A stretch of DNA of 64,000 nt from Candidatus Kapaibacterium sp. (GTDB lineage: Bacteria; Bacteroidota; Ignavibacteria; Kapaibacteriales; Kapaibacteriaceae), in assembly GCA_018882895.1 (NCBI GenBank), contig VERF01000005.1, forward strand, positions 3,378 through 67,377. Reading direction: 5' to 3'. This document shows positions 2,791 to 47,355 of the stretch, piece by piece. Each line of letters opens with the position of its first letter. Within the stretch, counting starts at the first letter, position 1. The notes beneath the pieces were generated by a model. It worked only from the letters and a program-made list of their open reading frames with translations, was not told the origin of the DNA and did no database searches. The translations under genes were made by a program, and so were the position numbers.

Positions 2791-5700
2791 TTAGCGTTGA
2801 ATAAGAACCGGAATGGTCGTCACCTCACCACGAGCCTGAACGGTCATCGTGTAGGTGCCGGCGCCGAGACCACGCACATCCAGTGTGCGACGGAGGTCGT
2901 CGCCGGATGTGGCCGACTCTTGGCCGCTCATGAGCGTCTGACCAAGCGTGTTGGTAAGGGTCCAGCTCAGCAGGTCCGTGCCAAGCCCCTTAACGTCGAT
3001 GGTGACGTCCGAGCCGGCCGGTGTCGGATACACCACAACGCCATAGCCGTTCTTCTTCGGGATCAGGTAGCGATCTCCACCTTCTCGGCAGATATCGCTG
3101 ATGGTCACCTGACCATTGCGCTTCTCGATCTGAGCACCCGTGAGCCCGATCCACTGGAAGTCGGTCAGCGTCAATGCCGTGCGATCGGCCGAGCCGAGCA
3201 CAGCGGTGAAGTTCAGGGCAAAGAGCGTGCCGACGGTGTCGACTCCTCGCGTACCCTGGATGGTGACCGAGCATGGGCCCGAAGTGTTCGGCAACCAACA
3301 GTCGACCACGTTGGCACGGCCGACCACAACGCCGGGGTCGTAGGTGAGTGTTGCACGCCACGACTTTGCATCGGAGGCGTTGAGTCCCTGTGAGCTCAGA
3401 AGGCGCACCGGCACGACGAACTGTTCGCCTACCTTCGCGCTGACAGAGTCGATGCTCACGGTGCTGGAAACAATGGTCGTCTTGGTGCACGTTGCCGTTA
3501 CAACTGTCTGGGCCGTGACTCCCGCGCAGGGCAGTAAGACGGCAGCTTCAAGCGTGTCGCTGATCGTGGTCCGACCCTGGCAGGCCGTGATGAAATCAAC
3601 CATGAGTTCGCCACCGGGAAGAATACCGACAAGGGGGCCGGGCACAGCAACATCGACGGCCGTGCCGCTGCTTTTGGAAGAGACACCTACGAAGATGGTG
3701 TCAGTTCCGGTGTTCGTGAACTTCGTCTTGCCCGTAGCAGTGTTGTTGATCGCACCAAGAGCAACCGTCGGATTATCCGAGCGCAGAGCGACGCTCGTGC
3801 GCACGCCCTGAACACGGATCACACGGCGCACGTCGCACGGATCGAATGTCACCACGATACTGTCAACCAATGGACCATCGGCCGCCGGCGTCCATGTGAG
3901 GCTGAACGACTGGGCCTGACCCGCCGTCAGCGTTTGGCCGTTTGTGAGCGTGGTTGTGACGCGACCGCCGTTTGTGACCGATTTGATCGATGCCGTTCCC
4001 GTTCCATCGAACGACAACGTAGCCGTCTTCTGAACCGATGTCCCGGGCGCGCAGGCCGAGAACTCACCGAAGTCGACCACGGAAGGTGTGGTAAAGGCGA
4101 TGCCGTTCTTTTGCAGTGCGTAGGAAACACTCACTTTGACGGCGCATGGTTCAACCTTAAGATCCTGCGTACGGCTGAATGCACCCGCCGCCGATGGTCG
4201 CAGCGAGACGTTCACGATCGTCGAAGACTTGGCGCCGATTGTCAGGGGGCCTGCCGGCGCATACACGATCTCAGGATCGTTAGGAAGCGTCACCGTCACC
4301 GGTACGTTCGACGTGTTCTCGATGGTGATGGCCGTATCGCGTTGGCCCTCACATCCAGACAGAGTGCCGGCATTGATCGAAGCAGGCGTCACCGTGGCCG
4401 TGACGGCGCTGGTGACGGCATTGAGCTTCACGCGCAGAGAGTCCTTGCACGGACCAGATTCGAATGGGAAGACCACATCCACCGAATACGTGCCCGGCGT
4501 CGGCGTGTAGGAGAATACAACTTCGCGACTCTCACCTGGCTTGAGTGTTACCTCGGCAGTTGGTGAGACAAGCGCAAATGGGGCTGCGATGGCCACGGGC
4601 TTGACAACGAGATCAACCTTGCCGCTGTTGCGGATAAGGGCTGTGTCCCGGCGCACATCGGTGTCGCAGACCACTCCCGCACCGAACGACACTACGCCCG
4701 GAGTGATCGAGGCTGTGAGCTGATCCTTCTTGGCGGTGTAACGGACCAACGTCGACCAGTCACATGGCGTGCCCGACACGGTGAACGTTCCGTTGATGGT
4801 CCCTGCAGTTGATGCCGAGATGCGCACGCGCAGATTCACCGTCGAGTTCGGGGCAATGACTACGCCCGGTGTGAGTGACGTCAGCATGCTGATGCGCGGA
4901 TCATCGGGAACGAATCCCGTTGCGCGCAGCTCGTAGGAGTGTGGATTTGTGATCGAGAACTCCAGCTCGGACGACGAGGCGCAGGCGTCAATGGTGCCGA
5001 AATCAATCGATGGTGGAGCCGCTGACGGCTTTGGATCGATGACCGTTGCAAGCACGGTGTCGCGAGCGCTACAGCCGGAGGCATCGGTTATCGTGACCTC
5101 ATAGCGGGATGTCGTGCCCGGGTTCACCGTAGGAGTCTGAAGTGTGTCGTCATCGATAAACTCGACGCCGGTCTCGACCCTGTTCCACTTATATCGGTAA
5201 GGGGGCGTTCCGCCGCTCGGTACGGCACGAAGCAGAACGCTCGACTTGATGCACAGCGATGTGTCGCGTCCGGCTGATACGTTCGGCTTGGGGTTGCGAC
5301 CGATGAATATCGTGTCGCGGTAGCGGCAACCGTCAGCCGTTGTACACAGCACACGATACGAGCCTGAATCACGAACGATGATATTTGCCGTCGTCTCACC
5401 TGTCGACCACAGATACCGTGCAAACCCCTTCGGACCGATGAGTTGCCGTGAATCAACGTCGCAGATCGTTGCGGGTCCATTCGGTTGGATCTCGATGATC
5501 GAGTCCTTGCACTGACTGAAATATGCCACGAACGCACTCTTCCGGAGCGTGTCCTTGTCCAGTTTGGACGAGTCCTGATAGGCCCCCGTTGTCGTGGTCA
5601 TCCGGTAGCTCTGAGCGATCCCCGTGAACACCACGTATGCGTTCTGGTCCAGCGCGACGTCGAATAGTTCGTCGTTACCGAAGTCGGTATTTGGCGGCAC

Positions 5701-7758
5701 GACCGGTGGTGGTGGCGGCGGTGGCGGTGGTGGTGTTGGCAGATTGGTCTGCGGCGGTGCACCAAGGAACGAGCCATAGAGTACGATGGATCCGGCAGGG
5801 TTGAGCTTGCCCATGATGCCGTCGGTGCCACTCGCGGCAAAAGGTGTCGACTGCACGGCATCGGCCGTTACCGGAATGTTAGGCGAGCGGCCCGTATTGC
5901 CTGCCACCCAGATGTTATCGGCTTGGTCAATGGCAACGCCGCGCAGAGCATCAGCCGAGTCACCGCCGTAGTAGGTTGACCATGCAACGACACCGGCTGA
6001 AGTGTACTTGCGGATGAATCCATCGCTTTGTCCGGTGAACGTACCTTTCAGCGCGGCCTGAACGGGGAAGTCAGCCGCCTCGGCCGTGCCAACGATCACA
6101 ACGTCACCCTTGCTGTCGATGGCGATGTCACCGAGCGTCTCAAAGCTCGCGGAGCCGAAGACCGATGCCCACAGACGTGTCGGTGTCGGACCGAATTTCA
6201 CAACCCCAACGTCATAGATCCCCTTGAAGCGCGAGCCGTCGGTTACCGGGAAGTTGTTCGACTCGGTCGTGCCGGTGAAGATGACGTTACCCTGCTTGTC
6301 AAAGACGATCTTGCCGCCGTACTCAAAGTCGCCCCCTCCGTAGAAAATCAGATAGTCATTGGTCCACTTTGAAGGGTTGGCAGTGCGCGGTTTGACGATG
6401 CTCAGAAACAGGTCCGTGTTGTCGTTGAAGTTCGAGGTGTCCTTTCGGTAGGGGGCTTCCCCGAACAAACCGCCAAGTCGTGGAGAGCGCGTATGGCCAA
6501 CGATGGCCACACGGTTTGCGGTTACTGCGATGCCCGTGGCCACATCATTCTCGCGTCCGAATACTTCCCAGCTGTCGCCCCACTTGCCATCTGGCAGGAG
6601 CATCAGCACCATTGCTTCCTGAAGCTGGACCGAGTCAGGGTCGCCATACGGTGCACTCCCAATAAGGGCATTGGACCATTCGGGACGGTCCTTTGAGTTG
6701 GACTGACCGGCCATCCAGATGTTGCCTTTGGCGTCGGTGGTGACGTCGTTCAGCTTGTCATCGAGCGAACCGCCATAATAGGTGTGCCAAATGAATGCCC
6801 CGTTCTCATCAAACTTGGCCACGTAGCCGTCGGTGCGAGCCTTGAGGCGACGCTGCAGAACGCCCGGAGAGCTGGGCATGTTGGTTGCGAGCGTCGATCC
6901 GGCGATGATGATGTTCCCTGTCGGATCGATGGCCGTGTAGGCCGACTCGATCGTGTTGTTGCCACCGTAGTAGGTGGCCCAGATCCGCTGTGGGTCGATG
7001 ACAAGGATCCGTGTTGGATCGTACGAACCAAGATCGAACCGTACCGATGAGCCACTCACTTGATAACGGGCACGAACCGGGATGCGATTCGCTCCGGCGT
7101 CATCGGTAGTGAACACGACAGGAGCTTGTTCGGAAAGGGAGCCAAGGGGCGTCTCGACGATCAGGTTTCCGTCCTCGTCGGTGACGGGAGCCGTGGTGCC
7201 GTCATAGCGAAAGGCGATGAGCCTTGGGTCGGCACCGGGTTGCACAACGAAGTCGTACTTCAATCCGAGCGGCGTCAGATACATCCGCATGTCGATGCCC
7301 GGCCACACCTCATGGTATACGATGCTGCCGAAACGGTCGGCTACGATCCCATCAACACCGGTATGAGGCCCAATGTGGCGGATAGTGCCGGGCTGCCGGT
7401 CAACGAACTCAACCCGCGGATCCGGGTTGCTGGCGATCAGGCGCATGTCTGCCCTGAAGAGGTCTGCCTCATACTCGGTCATATACGGGTCACGCGATGG
7501 TATCCGGTAGTTGACCTGCTGCAGAATGTCGAGCCCCTTGCTGTGAACATATGCCGTCACGTCGCCGAGGCGAAGGATGGCATCAACATGGCGCGAATCG
7601 GCACCTGCTTCATACCGGGCCTGGCCGACGTTTCGGTCGAAGGCCACCGGTGCCCTCGGTGTTGTGAGTCGCGATGCGGTTCCGGAAGCCGTGGCCACCC
7701 CTCCGCAAAGGACGTTTAGGATCAGCATCGGGATAAGCAAGCCGGCAAGACGAAGCAT
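2791..7758 (-). CDS. giant (~1655 aa) T9SS-sorted surface protein: SBBP beta-propeller repeats, poly-Pro tract, ~6 two-Cys Ig-like modules, cohesin-like module, type-A CTD
   Basis: Track ORF 2791..7950. The likely start is Met65 (ATG at 7758) because it gives the signal-like MLRLAGLLIPMLILNVLCGGVATASG. Contains repeated YYGG..D....D..GN...G.T.S..FP units. The cohesin-like segment is VSIDSVSAKVGEQFVVPVRLL...LTYDPGVV. The C-terminus VVVYPTPAGSDVTIDVKGL...GTYTMTV...IPVLIQR fits the Por secretion tail. Confidence 0.85.
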   Translation of the reverse strand: MLRLAGLLIPMLILNVLCGGVATASGTASRLTTPRAPVAFDRNVGQARYEAGADSRHVDAILRLGDVTAYVHSKGLDILQQVNYRIPSRDPYMTEYEADLFRADMRLIASNPDPRVEFVDRQPGTIRHIGPHTGVDGIVADRFGSIVYHEVWPGIDMRMYLTPLGLKYDFVVQPGADPRLIAFRYDGTTAPVTDEDGNLIVETPLGSLSEQAPVVFTTDDAGANRIPVRARYQVSGSSVRFDLGSYDPTRILVIDPQRIWATYYGGNNTIESAYTAIDPTGNIIIAGSTLATNMPSSPGVLQRRLKARTDGYVAKFDENGAFIWHTYYGGSLDDKLNDVTTDAKGNIWMAGQSNSKDRPEWSNALIGSAPYGDPDSVQLQEAMVLMLLPDGKWGDSWEVFGRENDVATGIAVTANRVAIVGHTRSPRLGGLFGEAPYRKDTSNFNDNTDLFLSIVKPRTANPSKWTNDYLIFYGGGDFEYGGKIVFDKQGNVIFTGTTESNNFPVTDGSRFKGIYDVGVVKFGPTPTRLWASVFGSASFETLGDIAIDSKGDVVIVGTAEAADFPVQAALKGTFTGQSDGFIRKYTSAGVVAWSTYYGGDSADALRGVAIDQADNIWVAGNTGRSPNIPVTADAVQSTPFAASGTDGIMGKLNPAGSIVLYGSFLGAPPQTNLPTPPPPPPPPPPVVPPNTDFGNDELFDVALDQNAYVVFTGIAQSYRMTTTTGAYQDSSKLDKDTLRKSAFVAYFSQCKDSIIEIQPNGPATICDVDSRQLIGPKGFARYLWSTGETTANIIVRDSGSYRVLCTTADGCRYRDTIFIGRNPKPNVSAGRDTSLCIKSSVLLRAVPSGGTPPYRYKWNRVETGVEFIDDDTLQTPTVNPGTTSRYEVTITDASGCSARDTVLATVIDPKPSAAPPSIDFGTIDACASSSELEFSITNPHSYELRATGFVPDDPRISMLTSLTPGVVIAPNSTVNLRVRISASTAGTINGTFTVSGTPCDWSTLVRYTAKKDQLTASITPGVVSFGAGVVCDTDVRRDTALIRNSGKVDLVVKPVAIAAPFALVSPTAEVTLKPGESREVVFSYTPTPGTYSVDVVFPFESGPCKDSLRVKLNAVTSAVTATVTPASINAGTLSGCEGQRDTAITIENTSNVPVTVTLPNDPEIVYAPAGPLTIGAKSSTIVNVSLRPSAAGAFSRTQDLKVEPCAVKVSVSYALQKNGIAFTTPSVVDFGEFSACAPGTSVQKTATLSFDGTGTASIKSVTNGGRVTTTLTNGQTLTAGQAQSFSLTWTPAADGPLVDSIVVTFDPCDVRRVIRVQGVRTSVALRSDNPTVALGAINNTATGKTKFTNTGTDTIFVGVSSKSSGTAVDVAVPGPLVGILPGGELMVDFITACQGRTTISDTLEAAVLLPCAGVTAQTVVTATCTKTTIVSSTVSIDSVSAKVGEQFVVPVRLLSSQGLNASDAKSWRATLTYDPGVVVGRANVVDCWLPNTSGPCSVTIQGTRGVDTVGTLFALNFTAVLGSADRTALTLTDFQWIGLTGAQIEKRNGQVTISDICREGGDRYLIPKKNGYGVVVYPTPAGSDVTIDVKGLGTDLLSWTLTNTLGQTLMSGQESATSGDDLRRTLDVRGLGAGTYTMTVQARGEVTTIPVLIQR

Positions 7759-7890
7759 CAGAATCCTCGTTACAATTGTTTCGTATAGAGAAACGAGAAT
7801 ACGACACAATCGGCCAACCGACAAGTAACAACCGGTGCTATTGCGTATCATTGGCCCTGTTTCGACAACCATGAACATGGCCATGATGCA

Positions 7891-8715
7891 ATGACGACGC
7901 TTGAGACCCTCTCGACGGCCGCCGGACGTGCGCTCCTGCGAGACCTTCATCAGGAGCTGCGATTCGACAAGCAGATGAACTCAATCACAACGTTGAGTTA
8001 CCTCTGGCGTATCTGTACGCGAGAGACAGACCTGTTCCGCACGGTCAATCGTGACGTCACGATCCTGCATCCCCTGGGTCTGTTCTCCGGCACCTCTCTG
8101 TGGATGCAGGAGATCGTCAACCGCTTTTACTATGCACCTATCAACGCCTTTGTGTACATGGGTGCGGCCATTCTGCTGGTTGCAGTTGGACTGAATCGGA
8201 TTCGCATCATAGACACTCCCGGGATCCTCGTGGCGGCCATCATCATCGAGGCGTTGCTGCTGGTTGTGCTCTTTCTGGTGATGTTCTTCACACCCCCGAG
8301 CGAGATCGATGCTCAATCTTCAGAAGCGCAAGCAGACGGAGCTACGCAGGAACTCCTGCGCGAGCTGGGAGAGATTGGTCGTGACTATGCGGCCATGGCC
8401 GTTCAGTTGGAGACGATCTCGGTGACGCTCCACGAGGTGGTTGAGCGTCAGGATGTCATGACGCGGCAGCTGCGCGACAGCGTCGAGGCCGCTGTTGGTG
8501 CGGTGGCGCCCAATCCTGAGCTCATGCAGGCGATGAAACAGAACACGCATGCCCTTGCCGACTTTTCCGAAAGCGTCACGCTTCTGAGCGAACGACTCCG
8601 CGCCGTTGAGCGTCAGGAGGTCGAGGGCCTGGTTCGGCAGGAGCTGGAGAAGATTCTCTCACGCAACATCGTCGATCGAGATGGATCAGCGCCAGCCCCG
8701 TCGTCCAAGAGTTGA
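7891..8715 (+). CDS. GldL/PorL-like inner-membrane motor (stator) protein
   Basis: Two TM helices (NAFVYMGAAILLVAVGL and GILVAAIIIEALLLVVLFLVMFF) followed by a ~140 aa coiled-coil-like tail. The Glu buried in TMH2 (GAG 8248..8250) is residue 49 if translation starts at the internal ATG 8104 (203 aa, GldL-sized). It resembles my recollection of F. johnsoniae GldL (..FAYGMGAA.., ..LLTE49ALIF..). The ORF is open from 7891, and which start is used is unresolved. Confidence 0.6.
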   Translation: MTTLETLSTAAGRALLRDLHQELRFDKQMNSITTLSYLWRICTRETDLFRTVNRDVTILHPLGLFSGTSLWMQEIVNRFYYAPINAFVYMGAAILLVAVGLNRIRIIDTPGILVAAIIIEALLLVVLFLVMFFTPPSEIDAQSSEAQADGATQELLRELGEIGRDYAAMAVQLETISVTLHEVVERQDVMTRQLRDSVEAAVGAVAPNPELMQAMKQNTHALADFSESVTLLSERLRAVERQEVEGLVRQELEKILSRNIVDRDGSAPAPSSKS

Positions 8716-10138
8716 GATCTACTTCATCCTGTACCTGCTTGCGCTGGTGCTGCTGATGCCGGATGGGGTGGTGCCTTCCTCTGATGAGGTAGCTTCCAGA
8801 GCGCCTCTGCGCATCGAGCTCTTCCCTGAGCGTATACGTCTCACCTGCGAGGTCAAGCGTGACTCGTCAGGGGGCGTGCGCGTGCTTGGCCTTGATTCGA
8901 CGAACGTCATACGATACTCTCCCGAGCTGACGAACGTCAGCGTCCGCGCGGTGATCGAAGATGTGACCTCGGGTCAGACGCTGACGATCGAGCCGGACGG
9001 CAACTCGCCGACGCGATTCGCATCGATTCGTCATGATGAGGGTCGGAGCGCATTTGTCTTTTCCTGGCGGCCTCTTCTTGATGCCGCTCAGTCCAAGACC
9101 TTCCGTGTGATCATTCAAGCCAGTGGGGTGCCGGTCAATGGCATTGCCACCGATGCCATGAGCGCCGTCGGCAGTACGCAGTTTGTTCTCACCACGGTGG
9201 TCAATGACCGTCAGCCCCCTGAGCTCGTCTTCATACCGGGCAGGCGCGACACTCTGGTGCTACGCGAAGGTCCGGTCACGTCCGAAGGCGCATCATCTCC
9301 TGCCGAATTCTGGATCGAGCCTGCCCGTGACCAGGTGTTAACGTTCTCATCACAGGAATGGAGCAACCGCATCACCATTGGCGGCGCAGACCCGCAGCGT
9401 GATCTGGCCGAGATGCCTACTGTCCGCCTCAGCGGTGAGCCCATGTCCGACGTGTCGAGATCCATCGATCAGCGCACGCTTATCGTGCGCGGCCGGGCTC
9501 CGCGCTCGGGAACGTCGACCGTGGAGGTCACTGCCCGCCGTGCAGACGGCATGGTGCGGACGACGAGTTTCCGCGTCATGGCCATGACCTACTCGACGCC
9601 GTCGGTGCCCGACGTGGTCTATCCGGGCGTTGAATATGTCATTGATCCGAAGATCCCGGCCGACCGACCCGGACTCCGGGCCGTTGTGCGTGATGGATCA
9701 CGTGAGATAGCCTCTACCACAGAGGGAGTTATGCGCGTTCGGTTCGCCATCCGCGATACGGGGCGAAGCATGACCTTTGAGCGAAGCATTGACGGAGTTG
9801 TCGAGATGAATGCGCAGAGCATCCAGGTTCGACCCTTCCCGCCCCCTGTCATCCGAGAGATCAGACGCGAGACTGATCCAAACAAGCGACTGGTGGTGGT
9901 TCAGTTCTGGTCGCAAGACCGGGGCGAAAATCGGCCTCAGATACGAGTTGTCGACGGAAACGTGGGGGCCGTAAGGAAGCTCTCGGGATACCTACGGCAG
10001 GCCGACAATGCACGTCCGGCCGTCGCCTGGCTCGAGGTCTTCGAAGTCACCCGAAAGGATGCTTCAAAGCCGTTCACGTTCCGCGTAGTGGCCTCCGACG
10101 AGCGCGGAAGGGAAAGTCCCGCCGTCGGCGCCGACTAG
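8681..10138 (+). CDS. GldM/PorM-like bitopic protein with all-beta periplasmic region
   Basis: Track ORF 8606..10138. ATG 8681 gives MDQRQPRRPRVEIYFILYLLALVLLM: Pro-Arg10, then Tyr18 eight residues later inside a single TMH, the same spacing as GldM SPR9QKMINLMY17L (from memory). The remaining ~450 aa is beta-rich Ig-like sequence, with a late VRPFPPPVIREI segment. Overlaps the upstream gene by 35 nt. Confidence 0.5.
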   Translation: MDQRQPRRPRVEIYFILYLLALVLLMPDGVVPSSDEVASRAPLRIELFPERIRLTCEVKRDSSGGVRVLGLDSTNVIRYSPELTNVSVRAVIEDVTSGQTLTIEPDGNSPTRFASIRHDEGRSAFVFSWRPLLDAAQSKTFRVIIQASGVPVNGIATDAMSAVGSTQFVLTTVVNDRQPPELVFIPGRRDTLVLREGPVTSEGASSPAEFWIEPARDQVLTFSSQEWSNRITIGGADPQRDLAEMPTVRLSGEPMSDVSRSIDQRTLIVRGRAPRSGTSTVEVTARRADGMVRTTSFRVMAMTYSTPSVPDVVYPGVEYVIDPKIPADRPGLRAVVRDGSREIASTTEGVMRVRFAIRDTGRSMTFERSIDGVVEMNAQSIQVRPFPPPVIREIRRETDPNKRLVVVQFWSQDRGENRPQIRVVDGNVGAVRKLSGYLRQADNARPAVAWLEVFEVTRKDASKPFTFRVVASDERGRESPAVGAD

Positions 10139-11142
10139 TTCGAGGGGGCTCTGCCGATCGCCTCCCGGTAGAGGCGCACGTTCTGATTGTGTTCTGCCAG
10201 GGTGACGGCAAAGCGATGCCGCATGGTGCCATCCCCACGCGCTACGAAGAAGATCCAGTCATGGGATTCCGGATTCATTGTTGCCGTGAATGCAGCCTTG
10301 CCGGGATTACAGATGGGTCCGGGAGGAAGTCCGGCATGAACGTACGTGTTGTAAGGGTTCGATGCGTCTCGTAGTTCCGATCCCGTGATACGATCCTTCC
10401 CCGTGAGGTACTGCACCGTCGGATCGGCCTGCAGGCGCATACCGATGCGCAGGCGGTTGACGTATACTCCGGCGATGCGAGGCATTTCGTCGATTCTACC
10501 CGCCTCAAGCTGAACGATCGAGGCCAGCGTCACGATCCGTTGCCGCTGCTGCCAGCCCCCTTGCAAGGAATCACCAGCAAGCTGATTCCAAAGCCGGCGT
10601 GCCTGTTGGGCCATCATGTGGCCAACGTACGAAGGGTCATCCCCTCGGATAACGAAGTACGTGTCGGGCATGAGAAAGCCCTCCATCGATGTTGCCTCCA
10701 CTGCGTAGGTCCTGCACACCGTGTCGGACCGGCACCATGCCAGGAATGCTGCCGAGTCGACCTCGGCTCGCTTCCAGAGTCTGAATGCGATCTCGCCGAT
10801 GGAGAAGCCCTCGGGAATGGTGACTTTGACAAGGGGCTCGCGGCCCCCACCAACGATCATGCGAATGATGTCCAGCGCTGACGCATCCGGTTTGATATGA
10901 TACCACCCTGGCAACACGCTCTTGCCCGTGATCCAGAGGCCGGTGCGGATGCCATGACGCACAACCCACGCGGCGGGGGAGTCGGCAGAGTCGACCAGTT
11001 GAAGGATAGGACGAGCCGATGGAGCCGCGCGAGAGACGAGCACAGACCCCTCAGCGCCGAGTGGGCGCGTCAGATACGAGATGCCTGCAAGGGCTGCCAC
11101 AAGGAACGCAGCCAGGATCCAAACAAGCCGACGCCGCATCAC
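10135..11142 (-). CDS. mltG: endolytic murein transglycosylase MltG (YceG family)
   Basis: 335 aa with an N-terminal TM anchor. YceG-like sequence including VTLASIVQLEAG, NPYNTYVHAGLPPGPICNPG and FFVARGDG. Confidence 0.9.
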   Translation of the reverse strand: MMRRRLVWILAAFLVAALAGISYLTRPLGAEGSVLVSRAAPSARPILQLVDSADSPAAWVVRHGIRTGLWITGKSVLPGWYHIKPDASALDIIRMIVGGGREPLVKVTIPEGFSIGEIAFRLWKRAEVDSAAFLAWCRSDTVCRTYAVEATSMEGFLMPDTYFVIRGDDPSYVGHMMAQQARRLWNQLAGDSLQGGWQQRQRIVTLASIVQLEAGRIDEMPRIAGVYVNRLRIGMRLQADPTVQYLTGKDRITGSELRDASNPYNTYVHAGLPPGPICNPGKAAFTATMNPESHDWIFFVARGDGTMRHRFAVTLAEHNQNVRLYREAIGRAPSN

Positions 11143-16415: not shown

Positions 16416-19400
16416 ATGAAACAAACCGGCCGATCAACTATGAGTCACATCATCATGCGCAAGCTTCAACTCCTTATCGCAGTCACACTCCTGTGCCTGT
16501 CTGCTCAAACCCTGCCCGCCGGTTCGCAATCGACGCCGGCCACGATGATCGACGGAATCATCATGAACGTGGGTCAATGGCCTTCGCACGTGCTGTTTGC
16601 CCATCGTTCCGGTGGACAGAACGTGTGGATCACAAAGACGGGCACCGAGGTAGACAAGTTCACGATCGACCGCAAGCGCGAAACCCGCTCCGGTGAGGTG
16701 GTCGTGCGCCGCTTCGTTAACCCCGGTCCAGCATCGGAGCTCGGTATCATTGACCAAGTCGGTACGGTCTCGTTCTTCCTCGGAAGGGGAGCCGCCTCGT
16801 GGTACTCCGCTCCGGTCTTTCGTTCAGTAGTGATCCGTCATGCCGCGCCCGGTGTGCACGTCGAGTACTCTGCGGGTGAAAAGGGGCTTGTGCAGAATGT
16901 GGCACTCGATCCAGGGGTCGACCCTTCGGCTGCTGCCATGATCATCGAGACATCCTCCTCTTCGTCAACCCCACAGGCAATCGTCTCTCCGACGTCCCCA
17001 ATCGTGTATGCCTCGTACATCGGCGGCCCCGGTGATGATCACGTAGTTGGTATCGAGTATCTGACCAATGGTGAGGTCATCATCGGTGGTACAACGTCAG
17101 CTATGAACTATCCCGGCACCGCGGGCGGTTATTCGACCTCGCTCAAGGGCGTGACGGACGGATTCCTAGTGCGCCTCGACAGAAAGCTTCAGAAAGTGTT
17201 GTCGTACACGTTCTACGGCGGCAGCGGCGACGATCGGATCACTTGCATGATCAAGGACAAGAGCAACGCCATCTACATCACTGGCGAGACAAACTCGGCG
17301 GACCTGCCTGTGACGTCAGGTGCGTCGGGACAGCTGTACAAGTCCGGAATCGATGCCTTCATCGCCAAGTTCGACAGTTCACTCACCAAGCTGCAGATCA
17401 GCGGCTACCATGGTGGTAACAAGGATGATAAGGGTGTGGCCATTGCCGTTGATCAGAACGGTGTGATCTTTTTGGCAGGCAACACAAATTCTACGACGAA
17501 TCTTCCGGTGACCTTTCCGGTGACAATCACTCGCCGGGACTGGCGCGGTCGAACCACCACCGAGCCAGGTGGCGGATCGAACCAGGGACAGACCGACATT
17601 TTCCTAGCCTTTTTCTCCGTCAATGGCTCCATGCAGCAGTCACGCTACTTTGGCCGAAGCGGCATGGAAAAGGTAACGGCCATGTGCATTGATGGATCGA
17701 ACAATGTGTTCTTCACCGGTTCGACAACGTCGCCTGATTTCGAGACATCTCCGACTCCGGGTTTTTTCTCTTCGGGTCGTTTGCCGTATGACCGCACGTT
17801 CAATGGCGGCACCACCGACGCCTTCGTGGTGAAGATGAACAATGAGCTCCAGCTGGCCAAGTCGGACGACGGAACGTATTCGACGTATTTCGGCGGAAAC
17901 AAGGATGAGGAAGGACGTGGAATCTTCGTTGACGAGATCGGTCGTGCACAGGTGGTGGGCGTCACGAACTCGACGAATCTCGAAACAATCGGAACCCTCG
18001 TTACCCAGCCGGTAGGCGACCAAGATATCTTTCTTGCCGTGCTGCCTGACGATGGACGCAACCTCACGGGAGCCACCTACTTCGGTGGAACCGGGGCTGA
18101 CGATGTGCGCAGTGTCCACTACAATCCGGTGTCAAAGCTTGCCGTACTCAGCGGTTCAACCCAGTCTGGTGACTTTCCGGTTGCCGGCGACGGTGCAAGC
18201 AACGAGCGCATCGGCACGACGGATGGCTTCTTGACGTTCATGAACACGTCTACGAATGTCTACACCACACTTATTGGCGGAACCAATGCCGATACGATTG
18301 TCTCGGTGTCGGTTGACCCTGCCGGTGACGTGTACTACGTGACGTCGACAGATTCGGACAACATGCGCCTTCCGGACAGTGCCGCGCAAGGTGCCGTTGG
18401 AGGTTTGAATGCTCACGTAGGTAAGTACGCCATCGGAACCGTAGAGCTTACGGTCCCCAGCGGCGACGAAGTCTGGTGTGCCGGTGGTAATCGTGCCATT
18501 TCTTGGGCTGCGCAGAACATGGCGGATTCGACAAAGTACTCGATCGAAATGGCACCCGCAGGAAGCTCCAACTGGACCGTGCTGACGCGCACAGCCTTGG
18601 GTCGGAGCTTCTCGTGGAAGGTCCCGAACGTACCTACGGGCCAGTATCAGCTACGAATCACGACGGCACGTGGCCACATGAGTCGCCTGTTGACGCCGTT
18701 CACCATCTCGAATCCACCGGCTGTAAAGGAGCAACCGAAGGATGCCAGCGCATGCCTCGGAGGCCGTGTCATGCTGCGAGTTGTGGCCGAAGGAGCAGGG
18801 CTGAAGTATCAGTGGCGCCGTGCAGGACAGAACATCGCCGGTGCTACGCAGGATTCGTTGGTGATACCTGCGCTCGACGCAGCGGCCCTCGGGAAGTATG
18901 ATTGTGTGATCTCGGGTACGTGCACGCCAAATGCGACGACCGCCACGGTGAACGTTTCGACGGCCGTTGCCACGGCGATCAGTCGTCAGCCGACCGGTGT
19001 GTCGGTCGATGCCGGAAAACCATTCACCCTGTCCGTTGCCGCCACGGGTTCCAATCTTGCCTACCAATGGTCACGCAACGGCTCGTCGATCGCCGGAGCA
19101 ACGGCAGCAGAGTATACCGTTGGCGCAGCGTCGAAGAACGACGAAGGAGAGTACACATGTCGCGTTGACGGCGGATGCGGGTCGGTGACATCTGAAAAGG
19201 CCATCGTGGCTGTGTCGACGACGTCAGTTGAAGAAGAGACGATCGTCGGCGACACGCGCCTGCGACTTGTTGGCAGCCATCCTGTGTCGGATGTTGCGAC
19301 GCTTCGCCTTGACCTTTCCCGCGGCGCCGATGTGGCTGTCGACCTTCTCGACGTCAGTGGCCGATTGGTCGCTTCGATGAATGTCGGCAATCTGCCGGCC

Positions 19401-19511
19401 GGTTCGCATGAAATCCTCGTTCCCACCGCGGAATGTGAGTCTGGCCTGCACATTGTCCGGGTCTCAGCCGGTAATGTCCGTATCTCCAAGTCCATCGTCG
19501 TGGTGCGGTAA
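16416..19511 (+). CDS. SBBP beta-propeller repeat / Ig-like (I-set-like) surface protein with T9SS type-A CTD (paralogue A)
   Basis: 1031 aa. Signal-like MRKLQLLIAVTLLCLSAQT (start may be 16440 or 16455). GQWPSHVLF N-domain, many Y.GG.gdD...D..GN...G.T.S.dFP repeats, two KYQWRRAGQNIAGAT / AYQWSRNGSSIAGAT Ig-like units, and tail ...GLHIVRVSAGNVRISKSIVVVR. Confidence 0.85.
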   Translation: MKQTGRSTMSHIIMRKLQLLIAVTLLCLSAQTLPAGSQSTPATMIDGIIMNVGQWPSHVLFAHRSGGQNVWITKTGTEVDKFTIDRKRETRSGEVVVRRFVNPGPASELGIIDQVGTVSFFLGRGAASWYSAPVFRSVVIRHAAPGVHVEYSAGEKGLVQNVALDPGVDPSAAAMIIETSSSSSTPQAIVSPTSPIVYASYIGGPGDDHVVGIEYLTNGEVIIGGTTSAMNYPGTAGGYSTSLKGVTDGFLVRLDRKLQKVLSYTFYGGSGDDRITCMIKDKSNAIYITGETNSADLPVTSGASGQLYKSGIDAFIAKFDSSLTKLQISGYHGGNKDDKGVAIAVDQNGVIFLAGNTNSTTNLPVTFPVTITRRDWRGRTTTEPGGGSNQGQTDIFLAFFSVNGSMQQSRYFGRSGMEKVTAMCIDGSNNVFFTGSTTSPDFETSPTPGFFSSGRLPYDRTFNGGTTDAFVVKMNNELQLAKSDDGTYSTYFGGNKDEEGRGIFVDEIGRAQVVGVTNSTNLETIGTLVTQPVGDQDIFLAVLPDDGRNLTGATYFGGTGADDVRSVHYNPVSKLAVLSGSTQSGDFPVAGDGASNERIGTTDGFLTFMNTSTNVYTTLIGGTNADTIVSVSVDPAGDVYYVTSTDSDNMRLPDSAAQGAVGGLNAHVGKYAIGTVELTVPSGDEVWCAGGNRAISWAAQNMADSTKYSIEMAPAGSSNWTVLTRTALGRSFSWKVPNVPTGQYQLRITTARGHMSRLLTPFTISNPPAVKEQPKDASACLGGRVMLRVVAEGAGLKYQWRRAGQNIAGATQDSLVIPALDAAALGKYDCVISGTCTPNATTATVNVSTAVATAISRQPTGVSVDAGKPFTLSVAATGSNLAYQWSRNGSSIAGATAAEYTVGAASKNDEGEYTCRVDGGCGSVTSEKAIVAVSTTSVEEETIVGDTRLRLVGSHPVSDVATLRLDLSRGADVAVDLLDVSGRLVASMNVGNLPAGSHEILVPTAECESGLHIVRVSAGNVRISKSIVVVR

Positions 19512-19667: not shown

Positions 19668-22600
19668 ATGAACTCATCGGTTCGACGACTTCTTCAAACG
19701 CTAACATTCCTCCTGGTGATCGCCCCCTTCATGGCGAACGCCGGAACGGTCGATCTGGGGCGGACTGTTCCGGAGGGATTCATTCTCAACGCGGGCCAAT
19801 GGCCGGCTGAGGTTCTTGGCGTTGCCCGACAGAGCGGCTCCGAGGTGTGGATCACGCGAACCGGAGTGGTGCTGGATCAATACAGCATCTCAAAGGATGA
19901 TCAGCAGCGCAATGGTGTTGTTACACGGGAAGGCTTCCGGGAGATGCAGTCCCGCTTTGAACTGCGAACCGGCACCGTGGTTGGTCATGTCACGTTCGCA
20001 CGTGGCTCGGACCGCTCGCGCTGGGTATCGGCTCCGGTGGTGTCCAATCTCTGGCTTGTCGACTGTTATCCGAACGTGACGTTCGAGTACTCACGCTCGC
20101 AGGATGGGCGCGTCCGACGCGAGATCCTGGCGGCCCCGGGTGCCGATCTGGCAGCGATCAAGCTCGACGTTCTCGGTGGCGGGAAGAATGAAGTCGCCGA
20201 TGTCTCCGTGACCACGTCTACTGTCTATGGCACCTTCATCGGCGGCCCATCGGATGATGAACTTGCCGGTGTCGAATATCTTTCGAACGGCACCATTGTT
20301 GTGGCCGGAAACACAGCGGAGCTTTCGGCTCCCGGAGTGACAGGTGGCTACAGCTCATCAATGAAAGGGAGGATCGACGGATTCCTTGCGCGGTTCGACT
20401 CACGTCTGGAAAAGATGCTCTCCTACACCTACATCGGCGGCAGTGCCGAGGATCGAATCAGGGGGCTAACCAAGGACCGCCTGAACAATGTTTACGTCAC
20501 CGGTGAGACCATTTCGACTGATTTCCCGACCACCTCAGGAGTCACCGGGAAGCTTTACAAAGCCCTTAACGACGCCTTCGTTGCCAAGTTTGATTCAACG
20601 CTTACCAAGTTGATCGTCAGCTTCTACCACGGCGGTAACAAGGATGATGTTGCCCGTGCGATCAAGGTCGACCAGGACTTCAACATCTATATCGCCGGAT
20701 CCACCAATTCGACGACCAATTTCCCGGTGACATTCCCGGCGACCGTGAAGATCACCATTCCGGGAGGTTGGGGTAGGCCTCCTACGTATCGTGATATTCC
20801 CGGTGGAGGAGCAAATCAGGGCCAGATCGATGGTTTTGTTGCATCGTTCTCCCAGAACGGTTCGATGCTTCTTTCACGGTTTTTTGGTGGAACCGGCAAC
20901 GACGTTTTCACAGCGCTTGCTCTGGACAAGTCCAGCAGCGTGTACATGACCGGATATACCACATCATCGAACTTCGAGACCGCGCCGACGTCGGACCGAT
21001 TTGCCTCGGGTCGTAAGCCGGCCGACGAGTCATTTAATGGCGGCATAACAGATGCCTTCGTGGTCAAGCTCAGCAGGGAACTCACGCTCGCCAGCACCGA
21101 CGACGGCACCTACTCGACGTACTTCGGCGGCGACAATGATGAGGAAGGTCACGACATCGTGGTGGATGATCTTGGTCGCGCCTACATTGTCGGTTGGACG
21201 ACCTCGAACAATCTCCCTGCCGTCGGCACCCTCAACACGCAGCGCATCGGACAGAAGGATGTCTTCCTGGCCTTCTTTGCCGATGATGGTCGGGAACTTG
21301 CCGGCACAACGTACTATGGCGGAACGGGTGATGACGCGGCCTATGCCGTGGAGCTTATCTCCGGTACGACAGTCATGATGGCCGGTACGACCAATTCGGA
21401 GAACTTCCCGCTGACCGGTGAGGGTATCGTATCGACGCGCGCCGGTGACACGGATGGATTCCTGGCGACGATCAACACAGCCACGAACATCTATGCCACG
21501 CTGGTCGGCGGCAACGGTGTCGATACCATCAAGGGGCTATCGATCGATCCTCTTGGAAGTCCATACTACATCGCCTCGACCAATTCGGCCAATCTGCTTA
21601 CGTATCCGAAGTCGGCCTCGACAGAGCTCGCCGGCATGCACGGCTATGTGGCAAAGCATGCGTTCGGAGTAGTTGAAGTAACTGCGCCGATAGGGGGCGA
21701 AACATATTGCGTCGGCATCAGCAAGCCGATCTCGTGGTCGGCCCTCGGTTTCGCCGATACGTCACGCTTCCAGATCCAATACTCTGCCTATGGATCGAAC
21801 GTGTGGAACGATGTCGCCAAGAACGTAAGCGGCCGGAGCTACCTCTGGAAAGTGCCGGCGCTGCCCACAGGACAGTACGTGGTGCGCGTCACAACCATCC
21901 AGGGTCACCTGAGCGAACTTCTCACTCCGTTCACGATATCAAGTCCACCATCGATCGTCAAGCAGCCTGTGGACGTATCCGCCTGTGGCGGCAAGTCTGC
22001 AACACTCTCGATAACGGCCGGTGGGGCGGGTCTGAAGTATCAATGGCGCAAGGCGGGCGTGAACGTTCCGGGTGCCACCAATGCCACCTACACCATTGCC
22101 GCTGTTGATGCCAGCAGTGTGGGCAAGTATGACTGTTTGATCTCAGGCACATGCACGCCGAGCGTCACCTCCGCCTTGGCATCGGTCTCGTTCGGAACAC
22201 CAACGGAGATCACCCGCCAGCCTGCCGGTATGACCGTTGACGAGGGCAAGCCGTTCACACTCTCGGTTGCTGCCACGGGGTCGACACTTTCATACCAATG
22301 GAGCAAGAGCGGCGTCGAGATCGCCGGTGCAACTACCGCCGAGTACACCGTTTCTGCCGCAACCAAGGCCAATGAAGGACAATACACCTGTGCCGTGACC
22401 GGAGGTTGCGGAACGGTCACGAGTTCCGCAGCAACTGTTGTGGTGATGGGCGGAACGTCGGTCGATGAAGAACTGTCAGGTTCGTCAATCCTGCGCGTGG
22501 TTGGTCCGGTCCCCGCCGACGCCGACGTCACGGTGCGGTTCTCTCTGGATGCGATCCCGAGTGCCGCCGCCCGTTTGTCGATCGTAGATCTGAACGGCAA

Positions 22601-22745
22601 CAGGCTCGCAGCTCAAGCTGTTCAGTCATCCACCGGATCCTTCGATGCGCGCCTGGCCACGAACATGCTCGCTGCCGGGATGTACTTCATCGAGTATACT
22701 GATGGGGCTATTGCGGCACGCAGTAGACTGGTGATCGCCCGCTGA
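19668..22745 (+). CDS. SBBP beta-propeller repeat / Ig-like surface protein with T9SS type-A CTD (paralogue B)
   Basis: 1025 aa, collinear with 16416..19511 (GQWPAEVLG..., [30 protein letters not shown], tail ...[22 protein letters not shown]). Signal peptide [18 protein letters not shown]. Confidence 0.85.
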
Positions 22746-31705: not shown

Positions 31706-32308
31706 TCAGCCCCCTGCATTCGGACCAGCAGTATTGATCTTTTGCATGGCCATGGATGGGCCGGACTTGGCGATCTGGCGGATCGCTTCGCAAGTCTTCT
31801 GGATCATCTCCGCCTGCGCCTGCTTCTGGCTCTCATCAAACTCAGACAGAACGTAGTCCACCAGCTGGCCCGGCCCGAACTGCCGATCGATGCCACACCG
31901 AAGGCGCCAGAAATTCGCTGACTCAAGCTCGTCGATCACCGATGCCACGCCATTGTGTCCTCCTGCGCTGCCCCCTTGCCTGAGATGGATCTTGCCAACA
32001 GGGAAGTTGTACTCGTCGGTGATGACGATGATGTGCGCCGGCCCGATAGAAAGCTCTCGCGAGCGTTTCGTGACTGCCCGCCCTGACAAATTCATGTAGG
32101 TAAGGGGCTTTATGAGAACCAACTCTACGCCGGCATGTCGCACGCGAGCCTCGTCATAGAGGGAAGACGGATGCGCCCATGCCACAGAACACGCCTCGGC
32201 GAAGGCATCAAGCACCATGAATCCGATGTTGTGACGCGTCCGGGCATACTCCTGTCCAGGATTGCCGAGTCCGACGATCATCAATGTCGATCGAGAGGAA
32301 CTGCTCAT
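31706..32308 (-). CDS. pth: peptidyl-tRNA hydrolase
   Basis: LMIVGLGNPGQEYARTRHNIGF signature. The track ORF begins at a TTG (32317), but ATG 32308 (MSSSSRSTLMIVGL) sits 6 nt downstream of a -7 motif. Confidence 0.92.
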   Translation of the reverse strand: MSSSSRSTLMIVGLGNPGQEYARTRHNIGFMVLDAFAEACSVAWAHPSSLYDEARVRHAGVELVLIKPLTYMNLSGRAVTKRSRELSIGPAHIIVITDEYNFPVGKIHLRQGGSAGGHNGVASVIDELESANFWRLRCGIDRQFGPGQLVDYVLSEFDESQKQAQAEMIQKTCEAIRQIAKSGPSMAMQKINTAGPNAGG

Positions 32309-32314
32309 AATGTG

Positions 32315-32322
32315 CAAACCTA
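32315..32322 (-). promoter_or_regulatory. candidate -7 promoter element TAGGTTTG, 6 nt before the pth ATG
   Basis: The + strand reads CAAACCTA. The 6-nt spacing to the ATG is the same as at sufB. Confidence 0.4.
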
Positions 32323-32423
32323 CGCACGCTGAGCTTCGGTTTCCCGACGGCCCGACGCAGGCCGTTTGCTATATTGCGGCTTGTCGTAACGGTAAGTGAC
32401 ACTACAGACGGAACCATAGAAGT

Positions 32424-33998
32424 ATGGGCGTGTCAGCGCTGCTTGTAACCTTGTTCGGGCCCCTACTGGGTTCGCTCGCCATTCTGTTCATCCAACGCGA
32501 TCAGACTTCGGCGATTAAGCGAACCGCACTGGTGTTCTCGTTAGTCACCTTCGTGATGTCGCTGCTGTTGATCCCGTCGTTCGATGCCTCGAGCACGGCC
32601 CTGCAGTTCGTGGTCAATCAGCCCTGGATCACGGCGCTCGACGCCGGATTCCGGATCGGCGTTGACGGGATCTCTCTGCCGCTGGTGCTGCTGACGACGC
32701 TGATCATGCCGATCGCCCTTCTGGCATCGTTCGATCCGATCCAAAAGAGCGTCAAGGAATACTACGTTCTGATGCTGCTGCTGCAGTTCGGTATGACGGG
32801 AGTGTTTGTGGCATGGGATACGTTCCTGTTCTATGTGTTCTGGGAGCTGATCCTTATTCCGATGTACTTCATCATCGGCATTTGGGGCGGCAAGGATCGC
32901 ATCTATGCTGCGATCAAGTTCTTCTTGTACACTCTTGTCGGTTCGCTGCTGATGCTGGTTGCCATCGTATGGCTGGGTCTTGAGTCGCATTGGGCAGGAC
33001 ACGGTTTCACGGCAGACCTTACCAAGCTCCAGGTCATCGGTTCTCAGGTCGGCTTCAATGTCCAACAGCTGCTGTTCTGGGCATTTGCGATCTCCTTCCT
33101 GATCAAAGTTCCGCTCTTCCCTCTGCACACGTGGCTTCCTGACGCGCACGTGCAGGCACCTACTGCCGGCTCGGTCATCCTTGCCGGTGTGCTTCTGAAA
33201 CTTGGCACGTATGGTCTGATCCGATTCAACCTCGGACTGTTCCCGCAGGCATCGGTTCATTTTGCTGAGCTCATCAGTGTGTTCGCCGTCATTGGCATTG
33301 TCTACGGCGCCCTTGTGGCGATGGTGCAGACGGACATCAAGAAACTCGTTGCCTATTCATCGGTCAGCCACCTTGGCTTCGTGGTACTGGGAATCTTTTC
33401 GGTCACAACCGAGGGTGTTCAGGGTGCGGTCCTGCAAATGGTGAACCACGGAATCTCGACTCCGATGCTCTTCCTTTGCGTGGGCGTGCTGTATGAGCGT
33501 CGTCACACGCGCGAGATCGCCGATTATGGTGGCATCACAAAGGTCATGCCTCGCTTTGCCGTCCTGTTCGCCATCGCAATGTTCGCTTCGGTGGGTCTGC
33601 CGGGTCTCAACGGTTTTGTTGGCGAGTTCCTGACGCTTCTCGGCGCATTCAAGAGTGCTACGCTCGGCTCGCAGGTATATGCAATTGTCAGCGCCAGCGG
33701 CGTGATCTTCGCAGCCGTCTATTTGCTGTGGATGTTCCAGCGTGTGATGTTCGGCACCAACGACAACGCCGAGAACCACCATTTGCGTGATCTGAATCGC
33801 AGTGAGTATTGGCAGCTGGTGCCGTTGGCTTTGCTCTGCATCTGGCTCGGCGTTAACCCCAAGCCCCTTATGAACTTCTCGGAAGGCGGCGTCAAGGCCG
33901 TCGTCCAATGGGTGAGCGACCCGGCAAAGTCGGCGCCAACCATCACCACTGGTGCTGCCAAGACCGAAGCGCATCACTCAACGAACACGCACCGCTGA
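32424..33998 (+). CDS. nuoM: NADH-quinone oxidoreductase subunit M
   Basis: 524 aa polytopic antiporter-like subunit. WLPDAHVQAPTAGSVILAGVLLKLGTYG motif, NuoM-like length. Confidence 0.92.
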   Translation: MGVSALLVTLFGPLLGSLAILFIQRDQTSAIKRTALVFSLVTFVMSLLLIPSFDASSTALQFVVNQPWITALDAGFRIGVDGISLPLVLLTTLIMPIALLASFDPIQKSVKEYYVLMLLLQFGMTGVFVAWDTFLFYVFWELILIPMYFIIGIWGGKDRIYAAIKFFLYTLVGSLLMLVAIVWLGLESHWAGHGFTADLTKLQVIGSQVGFNVQQLLFWAFAISFLIKVPLFPLHTWLPDAHVQAPTAGSVILAGVLLKLGTYGLIRFNLGLFPQASVHFAELISVFAVIGIVYGALVAMVQTDIKKLVAYSSVSHLGFVVLGIFSVTTEGVQGAVLQMVNHGISTPMLFLCVGVLYERRHTREIADYGGITKVMPRFAVLFAIAMFASVGLPGLNGFVGEFLTLLGAFKSATLGSQVYAIVSASGVIFAAVYLLWMFQRVMFGTNDNAENHHLRDLNRSEYWQLVPLALLCIWLGVNPKPLMNFSEGGVKAVVQWVSDPAKSAPTITTGAAKTEAHHSTNTHR

Positions 33999-34020
33999 AC
34001 CCGAGATCGAGGACCTCTCA

Positions 34021-35451: not shown

Positions 35452-35473
35452 AGGTAACAGGCGCCTGATTCCC

Positions 35474-44462: not shown

Positions 44463-44491
44463 GTTTTGACGGATCCAACGAGCCACAGCGC

Positions 44492-47278: not shown

Positions 47279-47355
47279 GTCCTCCGTCCTCTGTAATCCG
47301 TAATCCGTACTCCGTAATCCGTACTCCGTCATCCGTACTCCGTCATCCGTCATCA
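47279..47355. repeat. heptamer tandem repeat array, 11 units, consensus GTNNTCC
   Basis: Units in order: GTCCTCC, GTCCTCT, GTAATCC x2, GTACTCC, GTAATCC, GTACTCC, GTCATCC, GTACTCC, GTCATCC, GTCATCA. The last unit contains the stop codon (47353..47355, - strand) of the TldD/PmbA gene. Confidence 0.95.

Follow-up and report, generated by a model that had tools for sequence, protein, structure and literature searches.

A two-gene inner-membrane unit of Candidatus Kapaibacterium resembling a strongly diverged GldLM motor

Does a 64,000-nucleotide stretch of Candidatus Kapaibacterium sp. DNA (GenBank assembly GCA_018882895.1, contig VERF01000005.1, positions 3,378 to 67,377 of the forward strand; hereafter the window) encode a relative of GldL/GldM, the proton-driven motor behind type IX secretion? 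A handful of ion-driven envelope motor classes is known, and GldLM has been described as Bacteroidetes-specific and tied to the gldKLMN operon. The hallmark of this class is an invariant buried Glu in a protein with two transmembrane (TM) helices, combined with a bitopic partner. The first-pass annotation had proposed that two overlapping genes in the window, here termed P1 and P2, form a GldL/GldM-like pair with an all-beta second member. The proposal survives at the level of remote profile-profile similarity, while three arguments brought forward for it fail: the numbering of the Glu as residue 49, a length of 203 aa, and the Arg10/Tyr18 match. Judged from its sequence, the pair is probably a distant homologue of GldL/GldM, and looks like a new, strongly diverged variant of the GldLM motor kind.

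Layout and conservation of the gene pair

The pair occupies the following positions of the window:

7891..8715, + strand: P1 gene, encoding a 274-aa GldL-like protein from start ATG 7891 (open reading frame (ORF); homologues of ~265-275 aa whose N-terminus is conserved)
8681..10138, + strand: P2 gene, encoding a bitopic protein of 485 aa (N-in; one TM helix, then four beta domains in the periplasm)
8681..8715, + strand: 35-nt overlap, the P1 stop region lying over the P2 start

The ORF coordinates bear out the first-pass description of two + strand genes overlapping by 35 nt, an arrangement that suggests translational coupling of P1 and P2; elsewhere the spacing of the two genes varies between an overlap of 8 nt and a gap of 77 nt. 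The start assigned to P2, ATG 8681, also holds. It lies inside an ORF opening at 8606, the product begins MDQRQPRRPRVEIYFILYLLALVLLM, and the database gene call (P0121) is likewise 485 aa. The G+C content of the pair region is ~60%, the same as that of the remainder of the window.

The start of P1 had to be revised. It had been placed at the internal ATG 8104, giving a 203-aa protein comparable to the ~215 aa of GldL and a TM glutamate at residue 49, but the 71 residues upstream are conserved in all homologues. Since residues 1-71 rank with the best-conserved parts of P1 and full-length homologues are almost all ~260-310 aa (a few gene calls being shorter), P1 starts at ATG 7891. The residue-49 and 203-aa coincidences are thus artefacts of the internal start and carry no weight. 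P1 comprises the following elements:

7891..8103, + strand: N-terminal cytoplasmic domain, aa 1-71 (invariant columns; two helices and short strands in the AlphaFold2 (AF2) model)
8131..8286, + strand: TM hairpin, with TM1 at aa 81-103, a loop, and TM2 at aa 110-132 (AF2, hhalign to GldL/PorL, weak Foldseek matches)
8248..8250, + strand: GAG codon of Glu120, in TM2 (conservation; hhalign onto GldL Glu49)
8305..8682, + strand: cytoplasmic helical hairpin tail, aa 139-264 (AF2, invariant columns)

The AF2 model of P1 (predicted local distance difference test (pLDDT) 76.5) contains a small N-domain, an amphipathic helix, TM helices 81-103 and 110-132, and tail helices 139-205 and 209-264 that form a long helical hairpin, in keeping with the two TM helices and long helical tail first described. 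From the charge distribution we infer that both termini are cytoplasmic. The N-domain is conserved across Kapabacteria and is lacking from canonical GldL. In an alignment of relatives R17, R24, W39, P61-L62-G63, G67, L70, W71 and E74 are invariant, and the tail has conserved residues E158-G160-E161-I162-R164 and P207-N208. The hairpin carries a Y89-x-G91-A92-A93 motif and R103. Glu120 was rightly singled out as the sole charged TM2 residue, at least within the core of that helix, and is essentially invariant (27/27 aligned relatives, 50/50 distant relatives and 67/68 species loci).

For P2, the elements are:

8699..8764, + strand: basic cluster and TM helix, aa 7-28, RRPRVEIYFILYLLALVLLMPD (conservation across species loci)
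8804..9205, + strand: beta domain 1, aa 42-175, which sits where GldM has its helical D1 (AF2)
9311..9586, + strand: beta domain 2, aa 211-302 (AF2)
9596..9850, + strand: beta domain 3, aa 306-390, containing VVYPGVEY and IQVRPFPPP and resembling GldM/PorM D3 (AF2)
9851..10135, + strand: beta domain 4, aa 391-485, the distal tip (AF2, pLDDT above 90)

The AF2 model (pLDDT 82.5) shows a lone TM helix with four beta domains after it; residues 42-175 contain beta structure alone, and the absence of a helical D1 noted earlier is thereby borne out. Helix residues Y14, F15, L17, Y18, A21, L22 and P27 do not vary, and position 12, at the cytoplasmic helix end, is acidic throughout (Glu or Asp). The pairing of Arg10/Tyr18 with GldM Arg9/Tyr17 holds in part: Tyr18 is invariant, whereas position 10 is Arg in only 32/68 species, the conserved basic positions being 8 and 9, and the hhalign register is a different one. 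As Arg10 is not conserved and the helix similarity is not significant, the Arg10/Tyr18 argument for GldM was rejected. In L188 and L250, P2 appears as two successive ORFs, pointing to a frameshift, to an error in the assembly or to a gene that is truly split.

All homologues of P1 (~120) and P2 (75-93) lack annotation and derive from Kapabacteria, 'Ignavibacteria' or 'Chlorobi' metagenome-assembled genomes. JGI names carried by some relatives (methyl-accepting chemotaxis protein, CdvB/ESCRT-III, YhgE) were put down to coiled-coil composition and rejected. With one genome scanned per species, a P1 relative was found in 171 species, nearly all labelled Kapaibacterium, Ignavibacteria or Bacteroidota. 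We assembled a set of 84 loci (1.37 Mb) from the window and 83 related loci (L001, L003 and L172-L253). Clustering puts both P1 and P2 in 83 of the 84, and wherever both are called they adjoin on the same strand in the same L-then-M order. Because co-occurrence, adjacency and order are kept across 83 loci, the pair is a real, obligate two-gene unit. Either the taxonomic label or the binning is wrong for many pair-bearing contigs (L175, L176, L183, L199, L203, L210-L212 and others), whose NCBI names are unrelated ones: Chitinophaga pinensis, Patescibacteria group, Hyphomicrobiales, Bradyrhizobiaceae, Melioribacter and Didemnitutus.

Profile-profile comparison with GldL/PorL and GldM/PorM

Reference sequences for GldL/PorL and GldM/PorM were drawn from the PDB and from 160 gldKLMN/porKLMN loci of Flavobacteriaceae and Bacteroidales, with the DWxxVYPEL motif serving as search pattern for GldL/PorL. 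The F. johnsoniae GldL sequence quoted in the first-pass annotation is exact when set against the real one. Using hhalign, the P1 family matches the five solved GldL/PorL hairpins with a probability of 40% (E 3e-4) and a diverse 36-sequence full-length GldL/PorL profile with 66% (E 5.4e-5). Overall, the hairpin matches range from 34 to 66% (E 5e-5 to 1e-3, 46-53 columns), below the usual acceptance level of 90%. The score grows with the diversity of the GldL profile, from 24.1 to 26.6 for the P1 hairpin; for full-length P1 the diverse profile gives 41.7. None of 150 full column shuffles (mean 11.2, sd 2.3) and none of 150 within-segment shuffles (mean 12.4, maximum 23.6) reach the real P1 score of 24.1, and the reversed query scores 10.6.

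All comparisons agree on one register, with P1 Y89-M-G91-A92-A93 on GldL (Y13)-G-M-G16-A17-A18 and E120 on Glu49. G91-A92 fall on GldL G16-A17; Y89 is invariant but lies one residue nearer the GAA, so that it meets Tyr13 only via a 1-residue gap, and N102/R103 are found near the Lys27 position. The alignment with GldL/PorL reveals no His30 equivalent in P1 TM1. The G-to-E spacing of 29 in P1 is that of PorL and two other solved GldL (3/5 solved structures). Similarity between the P1 and GldL tails was rejected: it gave two alignments with incompatible registers, and tail matches are thus considered coiled-coil noise. A Foldseek search with the whole P1 model gave no significant match. The GldL chains 7sax_D, 7sau_C and 7sax_G are among the 36 weak matches and are the sole membrane proteins there, the top one, 7sax_D, having a probability of 0.60, a target-normalised TM-score of 0.68 and a root-mean-square deviation of 1.8 A over 46 columns.

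P2 compared with Flavobacteriaceae GldM alone gives a colinear but insignificant alignment (probability 1.2%). With a diverse 51-sequence GldM/PorM profile, residues 212-390 are colinear on GldM 240-411 (D2-D3) over 163 columns with a probability of 20%. The best local match to this profile (37.5%, E 3.5e-4) is one domain out of register, placing the end of D2 and start of D3 on the GldM D3 end and D4 start. Taken by domain, P2 D2 matches GldM D2 weakly, and P2 domain 3 (306-390) matches the whole of GldM D3 with a probability of 35% (E 4e-4, 76 columns). The corresponding motif pairs in D3 are VVYPGVEY with NVVYRGVxNP and IQVRPFPPP with FRIKGIPGP, the latter being the late P2 segment in which a likeness to GldM had first been seen. 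Column shuffles of P2 score 17.4 +/- 2.9 and block-order shuffles 21.2 +/- 3.7 (maximum 35.6), with 0/60 reaching the real score in either case; the reversed query scores 16.6.

As a specificity control, all ORFs of the 1.37 Mb of Kapabacteria loci were clustered, yielding 42 families with at least five members each. When these are ranked against the GldL profile, P1 comes first (39.9, 59%), ahead of family 7 (24.8, 3.5%), labelled SdhC from its position beside succinate dehydrogenase genes. Against the GldM profile P2 comes first (36.5, 18%) and the runner-up scores 24.6 (1.6%); the family of immunoglobulin (Ig)-rich cargo proteins with a C-terminal sorting domain (CTD) is outside the top eight. 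That the best GldL-like and the best GldM-like family are one obligate L-then-M pair is the strongest argument that these similarities are not due to chance.

The architectural likeness can be summarised as follows. Both P1 and GldL/PorL, the stator of the T9SS/gliding motor (PDB 6YS8, 7SAT, 7SAU, 7SAX, 7SAZ), are small inner-membrane N-in hairpins of two TM helices with a helical cytoplasmic tail; they share Y-x(1-2)-G-A-A in TM1, a basic residue at the TM1 end, a single invariant Glu in TM2, and a gene position directly upstream of that of the bitopic partner. Unlike GldL/PorL, P1 has no curated-model match, cage motif, alignable tail or gldK gene upstream. P2 and GldM/PorM, which is rotor and periplasmic shaft of that motor (PDB 6YS8, 6EY4, 6EY5, 7CMG), are N-in proteins of ~500 aa with a short TM helix after basic residues and a four-domain periplasmic rod, the third domain of which aligns whole, from a VVY-x-GV start to a hydrophobic-R/K-x-(F/I)P-x-P end. 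P2 differs by its beta D1, its unrelated D4, E/D12 and the lack of a gldN gene downstream. Because defining features of both families are absent, P1 and P2 are not filed as members of GldL and GldM.

Genomic context and a wider hairpin family

The two genes that flank the pair are its context and do not belong to it; together with a further gene nearby they are:

2791..7950, - strand: divergent neighbour, a DUF7948/SBBP/Ig protein with Por_Secre_tail, type IX secretion system (T9SS) cargo
10135..11142, - strand: convergent neighbour, YceG/MltG
1948-2772, - strand: outer-membrane-protein (OMP)-like neighbour, a 274-aa secreted protein, Gly/Ser/Thr-rich, with no family match

The flanking genes had been correctly named as T9SS cargo and mltG. 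The divergent cargo arrangement is kept in 42 main-clade loci, where the order is PrfC, OMP-like and CTD cargo (divergent), P1, P2, and MltG (convergent). MltG adjoins the pair downstream, in convergent orientation, in 43 loci across several clades. The 1948-2772 gene, whose place beside the cargo gene is conserved in 37 related loci, encodes what looks like a beta-barrel of the outer membrane. In other clades the pair is directly preceded, on the same strand, by LptF/G (at least 13 loci), which sometimes overlaps the P1 start, or by BamD/YfiO (4 loci), and CTD cargo genes adjoin the pair in two further arrangements besides the main-clade one. These outer-membrane biogenesis neighbours may reflect a functional link or merely conserved housekeeping synteny.

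The window carries at least four large Por_Secre_tail cargo genes:

2791-7950, - strand: Por_Secre_tail gene (the divergent neighbour)
16416-19511, + strand: Por_Secre_tail gene
19668-22745, + strand: Por_Secre_tail gene
35378-37687, + strand: Por_Secre_tail gene

Three of the four share DUF7948, an SBBP beta-propeller and Ig domains, and belong to a paralogous family with 100 members in the 84 loci. With at least four such cargo genes within 64 kb, the organism almost certainly has a T9SS. The statement that gldK, which encodes an FGE-sulfatase-like lipoprotein, and gldN are missing beside the pair was confirmed for the window ORFs scanned and the 1.37 Mb of loci, and the remaining large ORFs of the window, when scanned, showed no T9SS machinery. 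In the sister class, Melioribacter and Ignavibacterium are reported to have SprA, PorV and Plug and no other recognisable T9SS protein (PMC11705866), and a review goes no further than that a T9SS 'may' occur in those phyla (PMC11285876). Our literature search found nothing specific on T9SS in Kapabacteria and no paper on its T9SS motors.

Other features of the window lie at a distance from the pair. AT skew is strongly negative at 32001-38000 (-0.13 to -0.19), coinciding with + strand membrane-protein genes that include two Proton_antipo_M antiporter/Nuo-type subunits (32424-35451), and at 58001-60000 (-0.28), coinciding with an ArnT-like glycosyltransferase gene (58678-60399). In the vicinity of a TonB-dependent receptor gene (44983-47211) are a gene for a MXAN_6640-family HExxH metalloprotease at 42867-44522 (- strand) and a tandem pair of TldD/PmbA-like metalloprotease genes at 47353-50819 (- strand).

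When 1.84 billion representative proteins were searched exhaustively with the P1 profile (hmmsearch, E<=1e-3), P1 proved to belong to a wider family. The search returned 194 proteins (sequence clusters), of which ~100 are diverse, range from 211 to 557 aa and match solely via the amphipathic helix and hairpin. Their consensus is Y.NNVQGFAY.GAA.LI..IGLRG...LEF.LL...PEE, in which the Glu is invariant, and 50 distant relatives scanned belong to no Pfam or NCBIfam family. Compared with GldL/PorL in hhalign, the distant set gives a probability of 26% (E 7e-4) and four genome-derived members 49% (E 1.8e-4), both in the same register as P1; the placement of FAY.GAA on FAYGMGAA and of the Glu on Glu49 is thus shared by the Kapabacteria family, the distant family and the four genome-derived sequences. 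The TM hairpin of the wider family is homologous to that of P1 (hhalign probability 95.5%), and the gene order is the same: in five genome loci the hairpin gene is always followed by one whose product starts MK(I/V)S(L/V)YF(I/V)(F/L)Y(V/L)A... The partner TM motif YF..Y..A is homologous to the P2 helix VEIYFVLYLVAL (hhalign probability 83%, E 9.5e-6), from which it follows that the two-gene module is older than Kapabacteria. The partners differ from P2 in being short (~190-220 aa) or having an unrelated periplasmic part, and in carrying a Glu inside the TM helix. The N-terminal regions of the hairpin proteins are unlike that of P1, and the genes sit in operons of 6-7 genes:

L087:9542-16480, same-strand operon
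L089:9563-16399, same-strand operon
L090:8695-14147, same-strand operon
L091:9608-16665, same-strand operon
L088:7769-14134, same-strand operon with the hairpin gene located by tblastn at 7769-7963, no ORF being called there

These operons run from the hairpin protein through the bitopic 'MK.S.YF.FYVAMILELL' partner to three secreted proteins (~380, 550 and 450 aa), and their last gene encodes a TPR lipoprotein or a VWA-OmpA protein. None of the operon genes in the five loci matches Pfam, NCBIfam or the GldK/M/N profiles. The operon appears to be an undescribed envelope machine.

This context bears on an alternative in which the pair is a GldLM-class motor, as one branch of a wider motor family, yet serves another envelope process such as outer-membrane biogenesis or maintenance. 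Such a role would agree with the placement of P1 among the 194 clusters, with the 6-7-gene operons in five loci that show no likeness to GldK/M/N, with LptF/G or BamD upstream and MltG downstream in Kapabacteria, and with a P2 tip domain unrelated to the ring-contacting GldM D4. The neighbours in question, however, have housekeeping functions and vary in strand, and in Kapabacteria the pair lacks a third component that is conserved with it. The Kapabacteria T9SS would still need energising, with no canonical motor seen in the loci searched, and T9SS cargo adjoins the pair in three arrangements, though cargo genes are frequent in these genomes. We consider service to another device unlikely. 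That the pair powers type IX secretion in Kapabacteria as its motor is a more probable reading, and one that we regard as evenly balanced between right and wrong.

Probable homology, proposed mechanism and meaning

Several observations weigh against a T9SS motor homologous to GldLM. No relevant Pfam or NCBIfam match was found for P1 or P2: the GldL model matches neither P1 nor its 27 relatives and 50 distant relatives, even at E<=10, and the GldM models match neither P2 nor 25 relatives at E<=10. Searching PDB sequences (hmmsearch) with the P1 profile returned coiled-coil designs and chemoreceptors, with a GldL chain at E 0.034 in the tail only, among noise; the P2 profile returned nothing. 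Against 5.8e9 proteins at E<=10 the P2 profile finds its own family alone, with no intermediates bridging to GldM, and the whole P2 model in Foldseek finds generic multi-Ig and cadherin chains only. The first-pass annotation had staked the likeness on profile similarity to GldL or GldM; curated hidden Markov models (HMMs) and the PDB hmmsearch provide none, whereas hhalign does link both proteins, albeit at probabilities never above 66%.

The individual parts likewise differ. After TM2, P1 reads FFTPPSEIDAQ... in place of the GldL motif DWxxVYPEL, of which the 'cage' residues W67, V70 and P72-E73-L74 are invariant in the 5 solved GldL/PorL, and it is longer by the 71-aa N-domain and by 4 residues from the Glu to the TM2 end. 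The P2 TM helix shows no significant profile similarity to that of GldM (hhalign, E 0.045-0.057), Arg10 is not conserved and the Arg9 equivalent is not fixed. Domain-wise hhalign finds no similarity between P2 D1 and GldM D1, nor between P2 residues 385-485 and GldM D4 (probability 0.2%). The most persistent neighbours are LptF/G, BamD and MltG rather than T9SS genes. Searches of the window and 83 loci, which are not whole genomes, with HMMs built from 132 GldK and 134 GldN sequences gave nothing convincing, the lone match being to GldN (E 0.012, 10.7 bits). As the search covered these loci only, a canonical gldKLMN may be present elsewhere in Kapabacteria genomes.

Part of this evidence would be accommodated if the pair were neither a motor nor a GldLM homologue, and instead a lineage-specific inner-membrane scaffold, Ig-domain anchor or signalling pair with a convergent or chance likeness. 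The curated-model and HMMER searches are all negative, hhalign probabilities are just 20-66% over 46-76 columns, and the GldL tail and cage motif and the GldM TM helix, D1 and D4 are all without match. TM segments are moreover prone to spurious profile matches, and the pair was picked by eye for its resemblance, which inflates the apparent significance. On this reading the P2 likeness would reflect generic beta-sandwich features. Chance is nonetheless difficult to reconcile with two independent weak similarities falling on adjacent subunits of one complex in the right order, each first among 42 same-genome families that include TM and Ig-rich proteins. The register is equal in three independent alignments, every shuffle scores lower, and an invariant buried Glu with a bitopic partner is the hallmark of the motor class. 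A non-motor pair of this sort is therefore improbable.

If P1/P2 is indeed a distant GldLM homologue, a mechanism can be proposed by analogy with the published GldLM structures. The 5:2 ion-driven motors MotAB, ExbBD, TolQR and ZorAB have been reviewed (PMC9389320). They and P1-P2 would have in common a polytopic ring subunit, a bitopic partner, a buried carboxylate on which ion coupling depends, and a periplasmic extension that passes work on to the envelope. The ring subunits of those motors have 3-4 TM helices and the carboxylate is located on the bitopic partner (MotB, ExbD, TolR); in P1, like GldL, the two-TM subunit itself carries the carboxylate. Neither P1 nor P2 matches these systems in sequence, except for an isolated sub-threshold match of one P1 relative to the NCBIfam ZorA model (E 0.0065).

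In the proposed model, the two-TM hairpins of P1 would form a ring enclosing the TM helices, one per subunit, of a P2 dimer. By taking up and releasing protons, Glu120, acting against a conserved polar face of the P2 helix (basic residues 8-9, acidic residue 12, Tyr14 and Tyr18), would turn proton flow into a rotation of P2 or a change in its conformation, and the ~450-residue, four-domain all-beta rod of P2 would transmit this motion through the periplasm to a client in the outer membrane. The type IX secretion translocon of Kapabacteria would be the likeliest such client, because the genomes are rich in CTD cargo, no GldK/L/M/N is found near the pair in 83 loci, and for the sister class only SprA, PorV and Plug are reported. 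Stoichiometry, ion coupling, rotation and the T9SS client are predictions. The D4 of canonical GldM contacts the GldK/N ring. Since the P2 tip is unrelated to GldM D4 and no GldK/GldN genes lie nearby, coupling to the outer membrane must differ from the canonical arrangement.

A broader possibility, doubtful at present, is a superfamily of GldL-like two-TM stators with 'YF..Y' partners, P1/P2 being its Kapabacteria branch, that is widespread in non-Bacteroidia members of the Fibrobacteres-Chlorobi-Bacteroidetes (FCB) group, provides the motor for T9SS that appear to lack GldKLMN, and is combined with modular shafts and devices. If true, it would supply the T9SS motor in Kapabacteria, and perhaps in Ignavibacteria via the operon form, and the GldLM motor class would be modular, with several periplasmic shafts and outer-membrane devices.

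In any case P1 and P2 constitute two new families for annotation pipelines to model, and the pair is a candidate motor so far unrecognised by sequence outside the classical Bacteroidetes. If it is a functional relative of GldLM, the motor core would be older and more plastic than hitherto supposed, tolerating the swap of both the helical D1 and the ring-binding D4, and the wider family (at least 194 clusters) would point to more envelope machines. It would also offer a testable candidate energiser for type IX secretion where only SprA, PorV and Plug have been found.

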